Assembly: GCA_964552195.1 (NCBI GenBank)
Contig: CAZKFM010000001.1
Coordinates: 258,796-322,795, forward strand
DNA length: 64,000 bases
Source of the DNA: an uncultured Flavobacteriaceae bacterium
GTDB taxonomy: Bacteria; Bacteroidota; Bacteroidia; Flavobacteriales; Flavobacteriaceae
Direction: 5' to 3'
The notes under the pieces were generated by a model. That model made no database searches. It worked only from the letters and a program-made list of their open reading frames with translations, and was not told the origin of the DNA. Position 1 is the first letter of the stretch, and each line of letters begins with the position of its first letter. Made by a program: the position numbers and the translations under genes. Positions 49,079-58,497 of this stretch are shown here, in pieces.

Positions 49079-50221
49079 ATGAAGGTATTCGCTGACATCA
49101 CATCTTATCTGACCCGGCGCTGGAAGGCCCTGTTGTTTCGCTTCCTGCTGGCCAATGTGGTTTTCCTGGCCGTAAAGCTGACCATGGACCATCAAGGCGA
49201 TGTCTGGGAGGAATTCTGGAGCAGTACAGCGGCCTTCTACTACTTTTCGGCCAACTTCCTTTTCCTGGTTTGCTGGGAAATCAACGATGTCTACCTGCGA
49301 AGGCAAACCATAAGGGGCGAGATGACGACCCGTTCCAGTCTTGAAATCGCAGGGAAGACCATGGCCTGGATTACCCTCTTCACCCTGGCGATCTACTACC
49401 TGGGGTTATTCCCTCTAAGGGATATGCTGGGCATTGAATGCCGGACGGTGAGTTATCGCGCTCAGTTCTTTACCGATGTCTTCCGCGCGCTATTACTGGG
49501 GTCAACGGTTACCTTCTTTAATATGTTCTACTATTCGCTGCGGCAGCGCGAGGAGCTCAAACGGCAAATGGAAGATCTGAGAAAGGAAATGGTGGCCTCG
49601 CAATATGCCTCATTGAAGAGTCAGATTAGTCCCCACTTCCTGTTTAACAGCCTGAATACACTGACTTCCCTGATGTATGAGGATAGGGATATGGCCTCGG
49701 ATTTCGTGTCCCGCCTGGCCTCCTCGTACCGCTACATCCTGGATAATCGGGAGTCCGACCTGGTAAGTCTGGAAAAGGAGCTGGGTTTCCTCGAGAACTA
49801 CACCTTCATGATGGAGGTGCGTCACGCTGACTCCGTTCGTATAGTCACCGATATGAACCTGGATACAGGCGAAGTGTTCCTGCCCACGCTATCACTGCAA
49901 ATGCTGGTGGAAAACGCACTTAAGCACAACTACTATTCGCGGCAGCATCCTCTGACCATCGAGATACGCAATTCCAGTAATAGTACCTTGCAAGTAACCA
50001 ACAACCTGAATCCGAGGGTAGGGGAAGAGGTGGAGAGCACGGGACTGGGGCTGGACAACATCCGAAAACGCTATTCCGTCTATACCCGCCAGGCGGTACA
50101 GGTGTATACCGATAACCGTCAGTACAAGGTTCAGATTCCACTGCTGAACCGGAATAACGAATCCATAAAACACCTGTTGCCTAAACCGAAAACCCATGTC
50201 CACAAAAGCCATAGTCATTGA
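49079..50221 (+). CDS. LytS/YehU-type sensor histidine kinase (multi-TM, His_kinase PF06580-like)
   Basis: Several TM helices, then the ISPHFLFNSLNTL phospho-acceptor region and an HATPase (LVENALKHN). Confidence 0.75.
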   Translation: MKVFADITSYLTRRWKALLFRFLLANVVFLAVKLTMDHQGDVWEEFWSSTAAFYYFSANFLFLVCWEINDVYLRRQTIRGEMTTRSSLEIAGKTMAWITLFTLAIYYLGLFPLRDMLGIECRTVSYRAQFFTDVFRALLLGSTVTFFNMFYYSLRQREELKRQMEDLRKEMVASQYASLKSQISPHFLFNSLNTLTSLMYEDRDMASDFVSRLASSYRYILDNRESDLVSLEKELGFLENYTFMMEVRHADSVRIVTDMNLDTGEVFLPTLSLQMLVENALKHNYYSRQHPLTIEIRNSSNSTLQVTNNLNPRVGEEVESTGLGLDNIRKRYSVYTRQAVQVYTDNRQYKVQIPLLNRNNESIKHLLPKPKTHVHKSHSH

Positions 50222-50963
50222 GGATGAGGCTTTCGCTGCAAAAAGGCTGATCAAGCTTATCGCCGACCTCTGCCCGGAAATCAAGGTGCTCGCCCATCTG
50301 GATTCGGTAGAGAGCAGTCGCAGCTGGCTGGAAGGCAACCCGATACCGGACCTTATCTTCCTCGATATACAGCTCAACGACGGTTACGGTTTCGACGTCC
50401 TGGATGCGCTTGAACGCCATCCTCCGGTGATCTTTACCACCGCTTATAACGAGTACGCCCTCAGGGGGTTCAAATACAACGGACTCGATTACCTGCTCAA
50501 GCCCATTGTAGCCGAAGAACTGCGGAAGGCCTGTGAAAAATTCAGCAGGCAGCGCGGCGAGCAGGGAACGGTAACCTACGAGATGGCCTCGGTGGAAGAC
50601 ATGAAGAAAATCTTTCAGAAGGAATACAAGCGCCGCTTCATGGTCAAGGTGGGCCAGCAGTTTAAATCCTTTCAGACTTCGAGCATATCCTACTTTAAAT
50701 CCGATGAGGGCGTGATATCCCTGGTGCTGCCTTCCGGCAAGGAATACCCCATAGAGTACAGCCTGGACCAGCTGGAGGAAATTCTCAATCCGCTGGATTT
50801 TTTCCGCGTAAACCGGGGCTGTATCCTGAGCATAGACAGCGTTCAGGAGGTCCATTCCTACTTCAACAGCCGCCTGCTCGTCAAGATCGATCCGCCCAGG
50901 GAGGAACCGGTAATCGTAGCCCGGGAGCGGGCCTCCAGGTTCAAGAAGTGGCTGGACACCTAA
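50196..50963 (+). CDS. LytTR-family response regulator
   Basis: REC domain (IVIEDE...LIFLDIQL) plus a C-terminal LytTR DNA-binding domain. The start overlaps the histidine kinase stop. Confidence 0.85.
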   Translation: MSTKAIVIEDEAFAAKRLIKLIADLCPEIKVLAHLDSVESSRSWLEGNPIPDLIFLDIQLNDGYGFDVLDALERHPPVIFTTAYNEYALRGFKYNGLDYLLKPIVAEELRKACEKFSRQRGEQGTVTYEMASVEDMKKIFQKEYKRRFMVKVGQQFKSFQTSSISYFKSDEGVISLVLPSGKEYPIEYSLDQLEEILNPLDFFRVNRGCILSIDSVQEVHSYFNSRLLVKIDPPREEPVIVARERASRFKKWLDT

Positions 50964-51026: not shown

Positions 51027-52343
51027 CTAGTAGCGGTAGTACTCCGGCTTATAGGGCCCTTCGACCTTCACGCCTATGTACTCGGCCTGATCGGGCTTCA
51101 TCTCGGTGAGCTCCACACCCAGGCGTTCCAGGTGCAGGCGGGCTACCTTTTCGTCCAGGTGCTTCGGCAGGGTATACACCTCCTTGCCGTAGCGGTCGCT
51201 GTTGTTCCAGAGCTCGATCTGAGCCAGGGTCTGATTGGTGAAGGAGTTGCTCATCACGAAGCTAGGGTGGCCTGTGGCACAGCCCAGATTCACCAGGCGG
51301 CCTTCGGCCAGCACGATGATATCCTTGCCGTCTATGGTAAACTTGTCCACCTGGGGCTTGATCTCATCCCGGGTATCTCCGTAATTTGCCTTAAGCCAGG
51401 CCATGTCGATCTCATTGTCGAAGTGGCCGATATTACAGAGTATGGCCTTGTCCTTCATGGCTCGGAAGTGGCGCTCCTGTATGATGTCCTTGTTACCGGT
51501 AGCGGTGATCACGATGTCGGCATCCGAAATTACCGTTTCCATACGCTTGACTTCGTACCCATCCATGGCAGCCTGCAGGGCGCAGATGGGGTCGATTTCG
51601 GTTACGGTGACGATGGCGCCTGCCCCGCGAAAGGAGGCTGCGGTGCCTTTACCGACATCCCCGTAACCCGCAACGACTACGCGCTTACCAGCCAGCATGG
51701 TGTCCGTGGCACGGCGTACAGCGTCCACCGCACTTTCCTTGCAACCGTACTTATTGTCGAATTTGGACTTGGTAACGGAATCGTTGACGTTTATGGCTGG
51801 GATAGGCAGGGTGCCGTTCTTCATGCGCTCGTAGAGGCGGTGAACCCCGGTAGTAGTCTCCTCGGACAGCCCTCGTATACCTGCGGCCAGTTCGGGGAAA
51901 CGGTCGAAAACCATATTGGTTAGGTCGCCCCCGTCGTCCAGGATCATGTTCAGGGGCTGCCGATCTTCCCCGAAAAACAGGGTCTGCTCGATGCACCAGT
52001 CGAATTCCTCTTCCGTCATGCCCTTCCAGGCGTAGACGGGTATGCCTCGGGCGGCTATGGCCGCCGCGGCATGGTCCTGAGTGCTAAAGATGTTACAGGA
52101 ACTCCAGGTGACATCTGCGCCCAACTCAACCAGGGTTTCGATCAGTACGGCGGTCTGTATGGTCATGTGGAGGCAACCCGCTATACGCGCACCTGCCAGG
52201 GGCTTCTCGCTACCGTATTCCTCTCGGAGCGCCATCAGCCCGGGCATTTCGGCCTCGGCCAGTTCGATTTCCTTCCGGCCCCAGTCGGCGAGTTGGAGGT
52301 CTTTTACTTTAAAGGGTACATAAGGTACAGTGGTGTTGCTCAT
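51027..52343 (-). CDS. ahcY: adenosylhomocysteinase
   Basis: 438 aa. NAD-binding GYGDVGKG and conserved catalytic residues. Confidence 0.95.
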
Positions 52344-52442
52344 TGACTTTTTATTCTTTGTAGCTTCGCAATTACTTTGAACTCCAGACCTTAGTGGGTC
52401 GTTTGAGTTCCGGCAAAATTACAAATTCCATAAGGTTAGCCC

Positions 52443-53099
52443 GTGCCGGTATACAAAGATTTAACCATAGACGATCACAGTCGAGTCCTGATATGGAGGG
52501 TGGAGGAGAGCGAGGAGGAGCTGATCCGAAACATGCACTTCTGCCAGCATAGCCTGGAACGCCTAAAGGGAATGAAGTCGGGTGTTCACCGCAGGGCGTT
52601 TGCCAGCATCCGTTATCTGTTCAGAGAATTGGGATACGACGACAACGACGTCGTTTACAACGGGTATGGCAAACCGCAACCCAGGGATGGGTCGTATATT
52701 TCGATCACCCATTCCGGCATGTATACGGGCCTGATACATTCCACTGTCCGGCCGGTGGGTATAGACATCGAGCTCAAAAGAGACAAAATCTTACGGATCG
52801 CCAATAAATTCACCCGCTTCCATCACGGCATGGTCCCCGGCGGAGATGCTGAGGATTTCGAGCAAAGGCAAGTCCGGACGCTCACTGCCATCTGGGCAGT
52901 CAAGGAGTCCATATATAAGTTGTATGGAAAAAAGGGACTGAGCTTCCTGGACCATATTACAGCGGAAGAGGTGGTATTTGAGAATGGAATGGCCCGGGCG
53001 TCGGTGAATTTTGGTAATCGGAGAAGGGAGTTTGGCGCACGGGTGCTGGAGTTCGACGGTTATACCTGCGTCTGGGTGCTGGAGCCTGAAAAAGAATAG
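52443..53099 (+). CDS. 4'-phosphopantetheinyl transferase (Sfp/EntD-type)
   Basis: GKPQ...ISITHS and WAVKESIYK motifs of the PPTase superfamily. GTG start. Confidence 0.7.
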   Translation: MPVYKDLTIDDHSRVLIWRVEESEEELIRNMHFCQHSLERLKGMKSGVHRRAFASIRYLFRELGYDDNDVVYNGYGKPQPRDGSYISITHSGMYTGLIHSTVRPVGIDIELKRDKILRIANKFTRFHHGMVPGGDAEDFEQRQVRTLTAIWAVKESIYKLYGKKGLSFLDHITAEEVVFENGMARASVNFGNRRREFGARVLEFDGYTCVWVLEPEKE

Positions 53100-53102
53100 A
53101 CT

Positions 53103-53363
53103 ATGGAAGTATCGGTAGAGATTTCGCTATATCCCCTTAAGGAGGACTATGAGCCCCCTATTCAGGACTTTATCAAAGCCCTGCGGGAGTCGGGTCTGCG
53201 AATGATGGAGACCCCTCTCAGCACGCAGGTGTTCGGTCCTTATGATGAGGTGATGCGGGTGGTTACGCGGGAGATGCGGGAGACTCTAGGCCATCTGCCG
53301 GATGGAGTATTTCAGCTTAAAGTGGTGAGCGGTAACCGATCGGACTATGAGCCCGATTTTTGA
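53103..53363 (+). CDS. MTH1187/YkoF-family (DUF77) thiamine-binding-like protein
   Basis: 86 aa. The VEISLYPL...ESGL...TPLSTQVFG pattern matches the YkoF ferredoxin-like fold family. 3 bp after the PPTase stop. Confidence 0.65.
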   Translation: MEVSVEISLYPLKEDYEPPIQDFIKALRESGLRMMETPLSTQVFGPYDEVMRVVTREMRETLGHLPDGVFQLKVVSGNRSDYEPDF

Positions 53364-53979
53364 TTTCTTCCTGGATGCCTATGAAGGCCGCTCCGCCGAC
53401 CTGGTTGTCCTGGAAGCCCTGGCCTTCGTATTCGGTATCTGGAGCGTCTGGCTGGCGCGGTCGGAACACATCTGGGTGTATCCGACGGGTCTGATTTCCA
53501 CGGTGATCGTCACCTACCTTTTCTGGGTCGACCGGTTTATCGGCGATATGATGATCAATGCCTACTACAGCATCATGAGCATCTACGGCTGGTGGAACTG
53601 GCTTCGCGCCCGGGACGGGGTCCGGGTCTCCACCATCGGCATCAGCAGCAACAAGGAGCGATTTTGGGGAACCGGCCTTTTTGTACTGACCATGGTATTT
53701 ACCTATATGGTGTACCAGGGATTCGGCGTGCAACTCGACTGGACCAATTACGTGGATATCTTTACCTCGGGTATCTTTTTCACGGCCATGTGGTTCATGG
53801 CGCGCAAGCGGATCGCGAACTGGACCCTGTGGATAGTAGGTGACCTAATTACCGTACCTTTATACGCCTACCGCGGCTTTGGGATGCTTTCCCTGCAGTA
53901 CGCCATCTTTACCGTACTGGCCATATACGGTTTAATGGAATGGAGAAAACGCTACTACAGCAACCTTCAGACATCGTAA
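53347..53979 (+). CDS. pnuC: PnuC-family nicotinamide riboside (or thiamine, PnuT-type) transporter
   Basis: GIWSVWLARSEHIWVYPTGLIS and WWNW motifs of the PnuC family. About 7 TM helices. Overlaps the upstream ykoF-like gene by 17 nt. Confidence 0.85.
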   Translation: MSPIFDFFLDAYEGRSADLVVLEALAFVFGIWSVWLARSEHIWVYPTGLISTVIVTYLFWVDRFIGDMMINAYYSIMSIYGWWNWLRARDGVRVSTIGISSNKERFWGTGLFVLTMVFTYMVYQGFGVQLDWTNYVDIFTSGIFFTAMWFMARKRIANWTLWIVGDLITVPLYAYRGFGMLSLQYAIFTVLAIYGLMEWRKRYYSNLQTS

Positions 53980-54521
53980 AAGTGGTCCTATTCGGACCGG
54001 AATCCACGGGCAAGACCACGCTGGCCCGAGAGCTCAGCGAACACTACGACGAACCCTGGGTGCCGGAATACGCCCGGGATTTCCTACAGCGAAAATGGGA
54101 TGCCGAAAAGGAAATCTGCAGCAAGGAGGATCTCATGGATATCGCACAGGGACAGATCCGGCACGAGAATGAACTCGCCGCGCGAAGCCGGCGACTGCTG
54201 GTATGCGATACCGATCTGTTGGAGACCCTGGTGTATTCCGAACTCTACTTCGATGGATACGCCCATCCGGTCTTGCGGGAAGCGGCCCTTAGCAACACCT
54301 ACGACCTCTATTTCCTTACCGATATAGACGTGCCCTGGGAGGAGGACGACCTCCGCGACCGGCCGGATGATAGGGAGGAATTCTTCCTGGCTTTCCGGGG
54401 GGCATTGGAGCAAAGCGGTAGGAAATTTGTTACTTTGAGCGGGGGACGCGAACAGCGCCTTCAAACTGCCATTTCAACAATTGATCATCTACTCAATACG
54501 ACCTATGGAACTCACGGATAA
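53940..54521 (+). CDS. NadR C-terminal-domain-like kinase (ribosylnicotinamide kinase-type P-loop ATPase)
   Basis: Walker A GPESTGKTT and the PEYARDF motif resemble the NadR RNK domain. Overlaps the pnuC 3' end. The real start may be internal. Confidence 0.6.
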   Translation: MEKTLLQQPSDIVKVVLFGPESTGKTTLARELSEHYDEPWVPEYARDFLQRKWDAEKEICSKEDLMDIAQGQIRHENELAARSRRLLVCDTDLLETLVYSELYFDGYAHPVLREAALSNTYDLYFLTDIDVPWEEDDLRDRPDDREEFFLAFRGALEQSGRKFVTLSGGREQRLQTAISTIDHLLNTTYGTHG

Positions 54522-56040
54522 CGACAAGAAACTCCTCAGTGAAAAGGGCATAACCGAACAGCAACTGGCCCGGCAGGTGGAAATGTTTGAAAAAGGGGTG
54601 CCCTTTGTAAACCTGGCCGAAGCCGCGACAGTGGGCAACGGCATTTTCCAATTCGATGAGCAGCAACAATCTGCTTTAAGGGAGCAATTCGACAAACTCA
54701 GGGAGGGCAAGTCCCTGCTTAAGTTTGTTCCCGCTTCCGGGGCCGCTTCACGTATGTTCAAGGCGCTGTTCTCCTTTCTCGATGCCTATGAGCCCGAAGA
54801 AGAGGAGCTGGATGCCTATTTCGAAAGAACCGGAGATAAGGCGCTGAAGCAGTTTAAGGAGGGCTTGGAGAAGTTTGCGTTTTACAGCGATGTACAGGAG
54901 CGTATCGCAGGCAGCTACCAGACGGAAGGGGAACACCTGCATCGATTCGTAGCCGAAATCCTCGGGGAGACGGGCCTGAATTACGGTTTCTATCCCAAGG
55001 GGATGCTGGCCTTTCACCGATACGGAGACCGCAATGTGACCCCCTTCGAAGAACACCTCAAGGAGGCTGCCCGCTATGCTGAGGCCAATGGTACGGCCCG
55101 GGTACATTTCACCATTTCGCCCCAGCACCAGGAGCTCTTCACGGCCGAGCAGGAACGCATACAAGATCGCCTGAGCGAGGAAACCGGCAAGACCTTCGAG
55201 ATTTCCTTTTCGTATCAGAAGCCCTCTACGGATACGGTAGCGGTGAACATGGACAACACCTTCTTCCGGCAGGAGGACGGCAGCCTGCTCTTCCGGCCCG
55301 GTGGACACGGCGCCCTGATCGAGAATCTGAACGAGGTCAATGCCGATATGGTTTTTATAAAGAATATCGACAATGTGGTTACGGAAAGGGACTTTCCCGA
55401 CACGGTGGACAACAAGAAGATGTTAGGAGGACTGCTGCTCAGCATACAGGAGCGTGCCTTCGAACACGCCCGCTGGCTGGATGAGGGTTCCGGTGGAGAG
55501 GATCACCTGGAGGAGTGCCGGTTGTTTATGGAAACGGAGCTTAATGTCCGCATACCCGGCGAATACAGCACTCTGGACGAGGCGGGCAAGCGAGGACTTC
55601 TGAAAATCCTTATCGATCGCCCCATCCGGGTCTGTGGCATGGTAAGAAACGAGGGAGAACCCGGCGGGGGCCCCTTCTTTATTCACGGAACGGACGGCTC
55701 GGTTTCCCTGCAGATCATCGAATCTGCCCAGATCGATACCGACAATCCTGCCCAGAATCAGATCCTGCAGGGGGCTACCCATTTCAACCCGGTGGACCTG
55801 GTCTGCGGGATGAAGAATTACAAGGGTGAGCCCTACCACCTGATGGATTATGTGGATATGGGCCAGGCCTTTATCGCCTACAAGACCAAGGACGGCAAGG
55901 ATCTCAAGGCACTGGAACTCCCCGGCCTATGGAACGGGGCCATGGCGAAGTGGAACACCATCTTCGTTGAGGTTCCCCTGAGCACCTTTAACCCCGTTAA
56001 GACCGTCAACGATTTATTGAAGCCGGCGCATCAGGCGTAG
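54505..56040 (+). CDS. DUF4301 family protein (UDPGP-like nucleotidyltransferase motifs)
   Basis: 511 aa. The start overlaps the kinase stop. Gly-rich VPASGAASRM and PGGHGAL motifs resemble the UDPGP (PF01704) nucleotide-binding and catalytic loops. Confidence 0.55.
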   Translation: MELTDNDKKLLSEKGITEQQLARQVEMFEKGVPFVNLAEAATVGNGIFQFDEQQQSALREQFDKLREGKSLLKFVPASGAASRMFKALFSFLDAYEPEEEELDAYFERTGDKALKQFKEGLEKFAFYSDVQERIAGSYQTEGEHLHRFVAEILGETGLNYGFYPKGMLAFHRYGDRNVTPFEEHLKEAARYAEANGTARVHFTISPQHQELFTAEQERIQDRLSEETGKTFEISFSYQKPSTDTVAVNMDNTFFRQEDGSLLFRPGGHGALIENLNEVNADMVFIKNIDNVVTERDFPDTVDNKKMLGGLLLSIQERAFEHARWLDEGSGGEDHLEECRLFMETELNVRIPGEYSTLDEAGKRGLLKILIDRPIRVCGMVRNEGEPGGGPFFIHGTDGSVSLQIIESAQIDTDNPAQNQILQGATHFNPVDLVCGMKNYKGEPYHLMDYVDMGQAFIAYKTKDGKDLKALELPGLWNGAMAKWNTIFVEVPLSTFNPVKTVNDLLKPAHQA

Positions 56041-56060: not shown

Positions 56061-56101
56061 CTCCCGGCGGGCCTAAGCAAGGGTTTTCCGGGAGGTTTTT
56101 T
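56061..56101 (+). terminator. rho-independent terminator after the DUF4301 gene
   Basis: ctcccgg...ccgggag stem followed by GTTTTTTC. Confidence 0.65.
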
Positions 56102-56310: not shown

Positions 56311-58497
56311 ATGAAGTATGCACTCGCTGCCGGCTTGCTGCTAGGTACCCTGGCATTTACTCTGGCTCAGGAGCAGAAAGTGACTAAAGACACCTTAGAG
56401 CCCTTACGCGTAAACCTGAACGAAGTGATCCTGTTCGCGACCCGGGCCAGTCAGCGTACCCCGGTTACGTTTACCACCATACGGGCCAAAGAGATTCAGC
56501 CCCTCAATCTGGGCCAGGACCTTCCCCAGCTATTGAATTACTACCCATCCGTAGTAGCCACCAGTTTCGACGGTACCGGTGTGGGGTACACGGATATACG
56601 GGTAAGGGGATCGGATAATTCCCGCATCAATGTTACCATTAACGGCATTCCCTACAACGATGCGGACAGCCAGACGACCTTTTTTGTCAACCTGCAGGAT
56701 TTTGCCTCTTCCATAGGCTCTATACAGTTGCAAAGGGGAGTGGGTACTTCGACCAATGGTGCGGGGGCCTTCGGAGCAAGCCTGAATATAGAAACCCAGC
56801 CGCTGTCCGTGGTGCCCTTCGCCGAACTGGCGACCAGTGCGGGCAGTTTCGGTACCCAGAAATACACCCTTCAGGCAGGAACCGGCGTACTAAACGATCA
56901 CTGGAATGTCAATGCCCGGCTTTCCCGTATTCGTTCCAACGGCTTTGTGGATCGCGCCTTCGCTGATCTTCGATCGTATTTCGTGCAGGGGACCTACCGG
57001 GATAAGAATACCCTGGTCAAGGGACTGGTATTCGGCGGATCGGAACGCACCGGCCTGTCGTTTATCGGCCAGGACCGGGCAGGGCTCGATCGGGACCGGC
57101 GGTTTAACCCCGACGGACTGTTCGTCAATGCCGACGGGGAGACCCGCTTCTATGAGGACCAGACCGACAACTACTGGCAGGACCATTATCAGCTGCATTT
57201 TACTCAGGGCTTCAATACGCGCTGGAACGCCACCCTTTCCCTGCATTACACCAACAGCCGCGGCTACTTCGAACAAATGAACGACGATGCCTCCCTGGAC
57301 TTCTACCGGCTGGGGACTGCCGACCTGCCCGGGCAGACTGCGGCTACCGCCGACCTTGCCAGCCGTCTTCATCTGAATTCGGAGTTCTACGGCTTGGTCC
57401 ATCAGATCAACTACCGGAGCGATGAGGTGACGGCCACATTCGGGGGGAGTTACCAGCGCTACGATGGGAATCAGTTCGGAGAGGTTATCTCCCTCGACCA
57501 GGGTATTCTGCCTGAGCGACCCTTTACGTTTTACCGCAATACCAGCCGCAAGCGCGACTGGAATAATTTCCTGAAGGCCACCTGGGACAGGGACGACTGG
57601 TCCCTGTTCGGGGACTTGCAATTTCGCCGGATTACCTACCGGGCGGAAGGATCTCTCTTCGATCCGGCTTCCGTACTCGAGGTGGACGAGGTATATAATT
57701 TCTTCAATCCCAAGGCCGGGCTGAGCTATAATCCCGATCCGGACACCAGTTTTTATCTGTCCGTGGCCCGGGCTCAGCGGGAACCCGCCCGTGTGGACTT
57801 CGAAAACGGAAATCCCGAGCCCGAAAAGCTCTGGGATTGGGAACTGGGGACCCGACTTCGCAGGGAAAAGATTCAGTTGCAGGCTAACCTGTTTTTCATG
57901 GACTATTCCAATCAGCTGGTCCTTACCGGTGAGCGCGATCAGGGTGGGTTTCCTTTGCGCACCAACGTAGGAGAAAGCTACCGCTTTGGCCTGGAGGCCG
58001 ACCTGACCTGGAAGCCAACGCAGGATCTGGTCATTCAACCCAACCTCACCTGGAGCCGCAATCGCAACCGCGATTTCGTGGTCTCCCGAAACGGGGAGCT
58101 TGTCAATCTCGGAAATACGGCCATTTCCTTTTCGCCCGAGTGGATAGCCGGAAATCGGATAACCTGGACCCCTTTTCGGTACTGGTCGTTTACCTTCCTG
58201 AGCAAATTCGTCGGGGAGCAGTTCATGTCCAATACGGAAGAAGCCAACGCCCGCCTGGAAAGCTATTTCGTGAACGACCTTAACGTGCAATGGAGGGTGC
58301 CTCAGCGGATGTTTACCGCCCTGGAGATCACCCTGCAGCTAAACAATCTGTTCGACGTGCAATACGAGAACAACGGTTACTTCTTCACCTTTGATGTACC
58401 GAACGAAGGGGGCAATGGGGTCACCACACTGGATGGTAATGCCTTTTACCCACAGGCAGGAATAAATTTCCTGGCCGGACTGCGCATTCGGATGTAA
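56311..58497 (+). CDS. TonB-dependent receptor, TPP-riboswitch regulated (candidate thiamine or thiamine-precursor outer-membrane transporter)
   Basis: Signal peptide, plug motifs, 728 aa barrel. Directly downstream of the THI-box. Confidence 0.8.
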   Translation: MKYALAAGLLLGTLAFTLAQEQKVTKDTLEPLRVNLNEVILFATRASQRTPVTFTTIRAKEIQPLNLGQDLPQLLNYYPSVVATSFDGTGVGYTDIRVRGSDNSRINVTINGIPYNDADSQTTFFVNLQDFASSIGSIQLQRGVGTSTNGAGAFGASLNIETQPLSVVPFAELATSAGSFGTQKYTLQAGTGVLNDHWNVNARLSRIRSNGFVDRAFADLRSYFVQGTYRDKNTLVKGLVFGGSERTGLSFIGQDRAGLDRDRRFNPDGLFVNADGETRFYEDQTDNYWQDHYQLHFTQGFNTRWNATLSLHYTNSRGYFEQMNDDASLDFYRLGTADLPGQTAATADLASRLHLNSEFYGLVHQINYRSDEVTATFGGSYQRYDGNQFGEVISLDQGILPERPFTFYRNTSRKRDWNNFLKATWDRDDWSLFGDLQFRRITYRAEGSLFDPASVLEVDEVYNFFNPKAGLSYNPDPDTSFYLSVARAQREPARVDFENGNPEPEKLWDWELGTRLRREKIQLQANLFFMDYSNQLVLTGERDQGGFPLRTNVGESYRFGLEADLTWKPTQDLVIQPNLTWSRNRNRDFVVSRNGELVNLGNTAISFSPEWIAGNRITWTPFRYWSFTFLSKFVGEQFMSNTEEANARLESYFVNDLNVQWRVPQRMFTALEITLQLNNLFDVQYENNGYFFTFDVPNEGGNGVTTLDGNAFYPQAGINFLAGLRIRM

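Follow-up and report, generated by a model that had tools for sequence, protein, structure and literature searches.

A DUF4301 protein encoded beside PnuC and a NadR-type kinase in a flavobacterial contig: a predicted nucleotidyltransferase of the UDPGP fold with a possible role in NAD salvage

What reaction does a protein of unknown function perform when its gene directly follows those of a PnuC-type transporter and a NadR-type kinase? This is the question raised by a gene string in the window, by which we mean the whole 64,000-nucleotide (nt) stretch of contig CAZKFM010000001.1, from an uncultured Flavobacteriaceae bacterium, that was analyzed here. On its + strand, pnuC (53347-53979) encodes a Pnu-family (PnuC-type) facilitator of 210 amino acids (aa), the next gene (53940-54521) a stand-alone P-loop kinase of 193 aa that is like the ribosylnicotinamide kinase (RNK) of NadR, and the third (54505-56040, ATG at 54505) a DUF4301 protein of 511 aa; all three open reading frames (ORFs) lie where a first-pass annotation of the sequence had placed them. 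That annotation had proposed that DUF4301 is the missing nucleotidyltransferase of a salvage module. The predicted fold of DUF4301, its linkage to the other two genes in flavobacteria and its fusions to the kinase speak for the proposal, and the function itself is plausible but not established: we put at roughly 40% the probability that PnuC, the kinase and DUF4301 form an import-phosphorylate-nucleotidylate module that makes NAD from nicotinamide riboside (NR).

The 511-aa protein matches PF14134 with 709.3 bits (cutoff 27, E 4e-213), its residues 5-510 aligning with positions 2-507 of the 507 in the profile. A TTG start at 54481 would be a possible alternative, but homologs are 509-517 aa long and align from residue 1-3. 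The family was rightly described as uncharacterized, as it has no NCBIfam annotation, no solved structure that is detectable by sequence and one incidental mention of DUF4301 in the literature; our literature search found no characterization of DUF4301 and no mention of PF14134. Names in public records can mislead here, one DUF4301 protein (P0014) having been deposited as 'NAD metabolism ATPase/kinase'.

Along the protein lie the motifs PASGAASRM (76-84), YPKGM (163-167), SYQKP (236-240), PGGHG (265-269), NIDN (287-290), PGGGPF (386-391), IIESAQ (404-409), HFNP (426-429), LELPGLWNGAMAKWNT (470-485) and FNPVKT (495-500), and across 147 DUF4301 homologs the catalytic motifs are at least 97% invariant. 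The two loops from which a likeness to UDP-sugar pyrophosphorylases was originally proposed, VPASGAASRM (75-84) and PGGHGAL (265-271), are present at the expected residues, as are the kinase motifs GPESTGKTT and PEYARDF that were quoted with them. At the level of sequence the likeness is faint: the Pfam UDPGP family (PF01704) scores 16.5 bits (gathering threshold 22, E 0.0036) and covers only residues 401-506, and searches of PDB sequences with the single protein and with two family profiles gave a marginal match to yeast Ugp1 only, the most diverse profile (A2) finding no chain. In the HMMER comparison with Ugp1 (PDB 2i5k) two collinear stretches align (E 0.11-0.78), such that PGGHGAL corresponds to PPGHGDL, NIDN to NGDN and FNPVKTvnDLL to FLPVKTCSDLL; the last 100 residues of DUF4301 end in EVPLxTFNPVKTVNDLL, aligned with VVPRSRFLPVKTCSDLL of 2i5k. 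By motif reading, PASGAASRM and YPKG would be the counterparts of GGxGT(R/S)(L/M)G...PK.

Structure prediction points in the same direction. The 15 best Foldseek matches of an AlphaFold2 model of DUF4301 made from 34 homologs (mean pLDDT 79.4, pTM 0.80) are UAP1/AGX chains (E 3e-8 to 1e-5, probability 1.00, ~540 aligned columns), and the model has a three-part architecture whose central GT-A/Rossmann-like core is superimposable on those of UGP, UAP and USP. Two structure-comparison methods and the profile alignment therefore support the UDPGP-like fold and the motif correspondence that the first reading of the sequence had suggested. When DUF4301 is set against the UDPGP family (UGP 3gue, 2i5k and 3r2w; UAP1/AGX 6tn3, 1jvd and 8yp3; USP 3oh0), the fold and the catalytic motifs are shared, whereas identity is 10-18%, the PF01704 match is C-terminal only, two helical insertions of ~75 residues each are found at aa ~86-160, inside the nucleotide-binding loop, and aa ~294-370, after NIDN, and a LELPGLWNGxMAxWN block with two Trp is invariant in the DUF4301 family. 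By these models DUF4301 is a distinct and distant branch of the UDPGP (GT-A-like) fold, which falls outside PF01704 by the Pfam threshold.

The UDPGP fold implies a reaction class, in which a nucleoside triphosphate (NTP) and a phosphate acceptor yield an NDP-acceptor and pyrophosphate (PPi), and it leaves the acceptor unfixed. Could DUF4301 then be a known type of NAD-forming enzyme? Neither DUF4301 nor the kinase matched CTP_transf_like or NadR-N, and the HIGH-type Rossmann fold of nicotinamide mononucleotide adenylyltransferases (NMNATs), with its (H/T)xGH and ISSTxxR motifs, was tested for in DUF4301 and is absent. If DUF4301 does make NAD it is thus an analog, not a member, of the NMNAT families.

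The two proteins encoded upstream are more easily assigned. PnuC matches PF04973 with 162.5 bits (E 1.3e-47) and TIGR01528 with 84.4 bits, against an equivalog cutoff of 42.45, and is weakly similar to structure 4qtn of a PnuC; by its sequence it is a PnuC protein and a predicted NR transporter. Transporters of the Pnu family work by facilitated diffusion, with metabolic trapping of the substrate by a co-encoded kinase (PMC5749112). The kinase of the window (PF13521 AAA_28, E 3e-43) matches only the C-terminal RNK half of the NadR models (TIGR01526 positions 164-318, E 4.6e-29; PRK08099 positions 232-408), scoring 101.7 bits against full-length TIGR01526, for which the cutoff is 341, and it matches the RNK domains of PDB entries 9x6f (E 3.6e-14), 8x7f and 1lw7. 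No NMNAT part and no helix-turn-helix (HTH) part was found in its 193 aa, in keeping with the earlier description of a NadR-like kinase that lacks the adenylyltransferase domain; IMG nonetheless names a stand-alone kinase of this type (P0273) 'NadR type nicotinamide-nucleotide adenylyltransferase'. The Walker A motif GPESTGKTT (aa 19-27), the Walker B motif CDTD and the lid PWEEDDLRD are conserved in at least 40 orthologs, PEYARDF lies at aa 42-48, and by these features of its sequence the protein groups with the NadR RNK domain and is a predicted NR kinase. An RNK-only kinase beside PnuC does not by itself make a hole in the pathway, because nicotinamide mononucleotide (NMN) may also be routed via PncC and NadD.

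Given that the fold of DUF4301 sets the reaction class only, NMN and the common hexose-1-phosphates might both be wrong and the acceptor a different phosphorylated metabolite, with a kinase whose substrate is not NR; examples would be ribose-5-phosphate, from which ADP-ribose would form, an uncommon sugar phosphate or the 5'-phosphate of another riboside. The distance of DUF4301 from all characterized subfamilies (with PF01704 below threshold), its invariant family-specific residues W476, W483, F427, H426 and D431, and its two large insertions would all suit such an acceptor. We nevertheless consider this improbable, as nothing positive speaks for any particular one of these other acceptors and the motifs of the kinase are close to those of the NadR RNK.

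Is there evidence that the kinase and DUF4301 work together? The strongest that we found is a set of 12 proteins of 681-709 aa in which the two are fused. By their DUF4301 domains the fusions fall into eight separate clusters at 70% identity, five of which also contain unfused proteins, and the fused protein P0009 is 87% identical to the unfused P0022 and 65% identical to its nearest fused relative, which suggests that the fusion arose more than once. Both domains of the fusions retain their catalytic motifs, and among the adjacent gene pairs in module loci only the kinase and DUF4301 were ever seen fused. This fusion is the only association in our data that is clearly above chance.

The genomic context of these and other family members was compared in 176 loci (L001 to L176): 80 from genomes, chosen as closest to the query, 80 from metagenomes, ranked against a distant member, 12 from look-ups of divergent representatives and four from look-ups of three divergent fusion proteins. 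Three divergent fusions are encoded directly after a pnuC gene, each in a setting of its own: in L173 the neighbors are a response regulator, YqeY and PorQ (of the type IX secretion system), and the genes for AhcY, 4'-phosphopantetheinyl transferase (PPTase) and YqgV are missing; in L175 the fusion lies after a divergent gene of 873 aa; and in L176 ArfB is downstream. The trio of PnuC, kinase and DUF4301 thus occurs in at least three different neighborhoods.

If the three proteins form an NAD module, it would act as follows. A riboside, most likely NR, would enter by facilitated diffusion through PnuC, the NadR-type kinase would phosphorylate its 5'-OH to give NMN and thereby trap it, and DUF4301 would couple the phosphate of NMN to AMP from ATP to form NAD. 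The imported riboside, NMN as the acceptor, ATP as the nucleotide donor and this order of the reactions are what we infer; what the analysis shows are the gene identities, the fold, the conserved catalytic motifs, the linkage by operon and fusion, and an active site that is identical in linked and stand-alone forms. In general terms DUF4301 would convert an NTP and a phosphorylated acceptor into NMP-P-acceptor and PPi, a single activity conserved across the sampled homologs, and in lineages that have no adjacent importer and kinase its substrate would be NMN of other origin. The kinase and DUF4301 would jointly do the job of bifunctional NadR, with a DUF4301 that is not homologous to the known NMN adenylyltransferases, so that PnuC, kinase and DUF4301 would reconstitute NadR-type salvage through domain displacement. 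The stronger form of this proposal, that DUF4301 is an adenylyltransferase of UDPGP fold for NMN, or for nicotinic acid mononucleotide (NaMN), and represents a non-homologous class of NAD-forming enzyme that is present in many lineages of Bacteroidota and fused to the kinase in several, we regard as possible but on balance unlikely.

The resemblance to NadR and PnuC lies in the presence of pnuC beside an RNK-type kinase homologous to the kinase domain of NadR and, in the fusions, in a two-domain protein of kinase and nucleotidyltransferase like NadR itself. The differences are that the transferases of NadR, NadM and NadD are HIGH-motif Rossmann NMNATs whereas DUF4301 is a predicted transferase of GT-A/UDPGP fold, that the domain order is kinase-transferase in the fusions and transferase-kinase in NadR, and that the module kinase has no HTH. 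In Bacteroides Fkp, the zebrafish glucuronokinase/pyrophosphorylase and the Lic system for choline, the kinases are of GHMP or APH type and make sugar-1-phosphates or phosphocholine. The module kinase, in contrast, is an NMP-kinase-like P-loop protein homologous to RNK and would be expected to phosphorylate the 5'-OH of a riboside. What these systems, among them LicB-LicA-LicC and the zebrafish enzyme (PMC3938481), have in common with the module is a logic of transporter, kinase and nucleotidyltransferase, sometimes in one polypeptide.

How widely does the linkage hold? The DUF4301 family is large, with more than 8000 word-index matches, 2950 clusters at 50% identity (E <= 1e-3; 1161 of them at 1e-30) and at least 598 species loci, and we found it only in contigs of Bacteroidota type. 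Of 77 informative genome loci, 45 have PnuC and the kinase immediately before DUF4301, and every one of these is flavobacteria-type, which is to say with flavobacterial or flavobacteria-like record titles. The usual order is AhcY<>PPTase-(PcrB)-YqgV-PnuC-kinase-DUF4301-(ArfB)...TPP riboswitch-TonB receptor (TPP, thiamine pyrophosphate), and this block recurs in a relative of only 41% identity (L082-84). In the other 32 genome loci, from Prevotella, Bacteroides, Parabacteroides, Cytophagales, Lentimicrobiaceae, Prolixibacteraceae and Aquimarina, there is no PnuC or kinase within 8 kb. The more diverse metagenome set has 59 informative loci, six with the module, 17 with a divergent RelA/SpoT gene and 36 without a recurrent partner. 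The linkage of pnuC to DUF4301 in other genomes, a point that the original proposal had set as its test, thus extends to flavobacteria-type loci and to the fusions and is absent from Bacteroidales, Cytophagales and most of the other lineages sampled.

We asked what distinguishes DUF4301 proteins with and without the module. In the unlinked lineages DUF4301 keeps every conserved residue, and a comparison of 55 module-linked with 92 stand-alone proteins gave 70 positions, every motif among them, with an invariance of 97% or more in each group. A division of DUF4301 into linked and stand-alone functional sub-families was rejected, there being only three group-specific columns, all conservative. 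Judged by this shared active site, DUF4301 would catalyze one and the same reaction whether or not the importer and the kinase are encoded beside it.

Beside the stand-alone genes, a RelA/SpoT-family (p)ppGpp synthetase/hydrolase gene adjoins DUF4301 in 37 Bacteroidales-type loci (L034-L080, L116-L168), directly upstream and on the opposite strand in 32 of the 34 loci analyzed by position, an adjacency that may be plain order-level synteny or reflect a shared divergent promoter region. The other neighbors are an SSF transporter (one locus), PurT, MFS, PagL, PanB, DAGK, CAT and PNGase F; we took none of these, RelA/SpoT included, as statistical support for an NAD or a sugar role. An isochorismatase near DUF4301 in L087-89 was considered as a PncA and rejected, as it is not PncA-like.

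Several of our observations weigh against a module devoted to NAD. To our knowledge all characterized enzymes of the UDPGP fold use sugar-1-phosphates, and N287, G387-388, E406 and N428 of DUF4301 fall at what we take to be the sugar-hydroxyl contact positions of UGP/AGX, which is a lead rather than a test. The 70 invariant positions common to both groups mean that the function of DUF4301 must make sense without the module; linkage to the module is found in six of the 59 metagenome loci and in none of the Bacteroidales or Cytophagales loci, and beside stand-alone DUF4301 in the sampled loci no nadD/E, pncA/B, nadV or Nudix gene was seen. The fusions are a small minority, present in nine of the 120 best DUF4301 clusters and one of the 120 best kinase clusters, and, as several are nearer to unfused than to fused relatives, some may be neutral. 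In the flavobacterial operon unrelated genes are packed as tightly as the three in question, so that adjacency is weak evidence. Finally, a DUF4301 protein of Prevotella ruminicola was detected in a rumen metaproteome (PMC7035244), and such a detection is more to be expected of an abundant central enzyme than of one in salvage.

The main alternative, which would explain the spread of the family and its sugar-type motifs, is that DUF4301 is a housekeeping UDP-sugar pyrophosphorylase of the Bacteroidota, acting on UTP with glucose-1-phosphate and/or galactose-1-phosphate and supplying UDP-glucose to, for example, the GT3 (eukaryote/archaeal-type) glycogen synthase, its adjacency to PnuC and the kinase and its occasional fusion to the latter then being accidents of a compact string of housekeeping genes whose reading frames overlap. 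We take this to be a serious possibility, though a somewhat doubtful one. The fold with the full motif set of UGP, UAP and USP, the single invariant active site of linked and stand-alone forms, the size and spread of the family, its variable, housekeeping-type neighborhoods, the equally tight packing of unrelated genes and the metaproteome detection all agree with it. In Prevotella bryantii, which has no glgC, UDP-glucose is the precursor of glycogen and UDP-glucose pyrophosphorylase activity is measurable (PMC7935935, PMC4432691), and all Bacteroidetes are without GlgC and have a GT3 glycogen synthase (PMC10395257, PMC11046441); for the UDP-glucose step a protein of UDPGP fold that is present across the sampled lineages, as DUF4301 is, readily suggests itself as a candidate.

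Two loci seem to place DUF4301 among sugar genes: a true galactokinase lies 50 nt upstream on the same strand in L044 (6778-9551), and in L081 (8001-12908) DUF4301 is followed after a 5-nt gap by an inorganic pyrophosphatase and then by glycogen phosphorylase. However, these are single loci of ~110, with no recurrence in the 80-locus metagenome sample, and such contexts are expected at about this rate by chance because these genomes carry many sugar genes; we therefore rejected GalK and the pyrophosphatase with GlgP, each non-recurrent, as statistical support for either hypothesis. The role in UDP-hexose synthesis also leaves unexplained the fusions in eight clusters and the trio in at least three neighborhoods. 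The sub-threshold UDPGP score, the failure of profile A2 to find a PDB chain and the helical insertions imply that DUF4301 is not a plain UGP. Nor can a lack of GalU-type enzymes in Bacteroidota be counted in favor of that role: no GalU homolog was found in 2.28 Mb of fetched loci with an E. coli GalU sequence as query, a search in which fewer than one was expected.

How much weight should be placed on the overlaps of the three genes? The first-pass annotation had argued from them to translational coupling, and the overlaps themselves, 40 nt between PnuC and kinase and 17 nt between kinase and DUF4301, are as it gave them; the former is seen again in the distant relatives L020 and L082. The string of three is likewise real, but it does not start with pnuC. 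Upstream on the same strand are the genes for an Sfp/AcpT-type PPTase (52443-53099; PF01648 ACPS, E 1.2e-7) and for an 86-aa small ligand-binding protein of the YqgV/MTH1187/YkoF family (UPF0045/DUF77; 53103-53363), the junction between these two being a 3-nt gap and the overlap of YqgV with pnuC 17 nt, so that five genes are tightly packed from 52443 to 56040. In relatives the genes for PcrB and ArfB join the same string, as tightly packed. The flavobacterial string, with AhcY divergent at one end (51027-56040 in the window; also L020 and L082), has nearly throughout junctions of 1-nt overlap, 1-3-nt gaps or 4-40-nt overlaps.

The flavobacterial string is a mix of unrelated housekeeping genes, which cautions against reading function from overlap: because PPTase, PcrB and ArfB are equally packed, and coupled likewise, overlap alone does not mark the three genes as a functional unit. 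In 54 related loci the module is preceded by the PPTase gene, which in Aquimarina loci without pnuC and kinase comes immediately before DUF4301; it is probably unrelated to the module in function. Just upstream of the AhcY gene, ORF translations indicate a gene for a histidine-kinase-like membrane protein and an overlapping gene for a response-regulator-like protein of 255 aa (49079-50963, + strand), which are unrelated to the DUF4301 module.

Downstream, the operon is predicted to end at an intrinsic-terminator-like hairpin (56061-56101, + strand; -28.9 kcal/mol, z -3.26 versus shuffles) with GUUUUUU immediately 3' of the stem, which a consensus terminator scan had passed over, the stem being long and interrupted. 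At the other end, an Rfam scan found no riboswitch or other Rfam match upstream of the operon, and a sigma-70 promoter scan, a model ill-suited to Bacteroidota promoters, gave matches at chance level.

A further possibility is raised by what follows the terminator. A probable TPP (THI-box) riboswitch aptamer (RF00059; 56162-56256, + strand) forms the leader of a gene for a TonB-dependent outer-membrane receptor with Plug and TonB_dep_Rec_b-barrel domains (56311-58497, + strand), the substrate of which is presumably thiamine or a thiamine precursor. The aptamer scores 48.5 bits (gathering threshold 54.3, E 1.4e-7) and is full-length (1-105) without the variable P3a stem; a whole-window Rfam scan at the gathering threshold gave no matches, and it was found only by a local search in E-value mode. 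In 25 related loci of flavobacteria type a THI-box pattern lies just ahead of the receptor ortholog, overlapping the called receptor start in two of them, and the pattern is also present in one further locus where no receptor ORF was called.

Might the whole region then serve thiamine, with a PnuT-like facilitator alongside the riboswitch-controlled receptor, a PF01910 protein binding the vitamin, the kinase phosphorylating it and DUF4301 nucleotidylating the product, for instance to an adenylated thiamine nucleotide? We consider this very unlikely, although it is not without support. The receptor lies downstream of DUF4301 in 47 related loci, adjacent or with ~5 kb of two-component-system genes between. 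The gene translationally coupled to pnuC, located directly upstream of it in 48 related loci, encodes a member of the 'thiamine-binding protein' family (PF01910 'Thiamine_BP', 30.6 bits against a cutoff of 24.9; also PF07615, E 9e-4), which IMG labels 'YqgV (UPF0045/DUF77)'. In L087-89 the genes close to DUF4301 include those for YjbQ and PFOR.

Moreover, the Pnu ligand motif of the window, WTLWIVGD (aa 159-166; 53821-53844), is of the form WxxWxxxD, with the Asp found in ~40 of 45 flavobacterial orthologs (L001-L080), whereas the NR-transporting PnuC of N. mucosa has Asn at that position, as do a few of the orthologs and the PnuC of L175. In the thiamine transporter PnuT the motif is W159/W162/D166, D166 being required for thiamine binding (PMC5749112), and the residue numbers in the window protein are the same.

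Against a role in thiamine use, the terminator lies between operon and riboswitch and no riboswitch precedes the operon; riboswitch and receptor are a separate transcription unit, a syntenic neighbor outside the operon, and in many genomes ~5 kb of unrelated genes separate DUF4301 from the receptor. Throughout the flavobacteria-type loci the region as a whole forms a frozen syntenic block. L173 and L175 keep PnuC, kinase and DUF4301 but have neither the PF01910 gene nor the receptor. The kinase is closely homologous to the NadR RNK and, so far as we know, unlike the thiamine kinases ThiK, TPK and ThiL. Compared with the systems of PnuT, thiamine pyrophosphokinase and TPP-riboswitch TonB receptors in Bacteroides and Shewanella, the likeness lies in a WxxWxxxD Pnu protein encoded near a receptor gene with a probable TPP-riboswitch leader; the differences are that the Pnu gene of the window is not downstream of the riboswitch, that its kinase is an RNK and not a TPK or ThiK, and that a terminator stands between the units.

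We return, then, to the reading in which the importer, the kinase and DUF4301 act in NAD salvage, and to what DUF4301 means for the bacteria that encode it. This is a large and highly conserved family of gut Bacteroides and Prevotella, rumen bacteria and marine flavobacteria, and, with a fold and a reaction class predicted, what was a domain of unknown function becomes an enzyme for which a short list of substrates is enough for an assay. If the acceptor is NMN, NAD biosynthesis would gain a structurally new adenylyltransferase, and reconstructions of NAD salvage in Bacteroidota, including the use of NR and NMN in the gut, would need revising. If instead the acceptor is a hexose-1-phosphate, the glycogen pathway of Bacteroidetes, which is GlgC-less and of GT3 type, may draw its UDP-glucose from DUF4301. 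Either answer, NMN or hexose-1-phosphate, would close a gap in the annotation of a phylum of ecological and medical importance.

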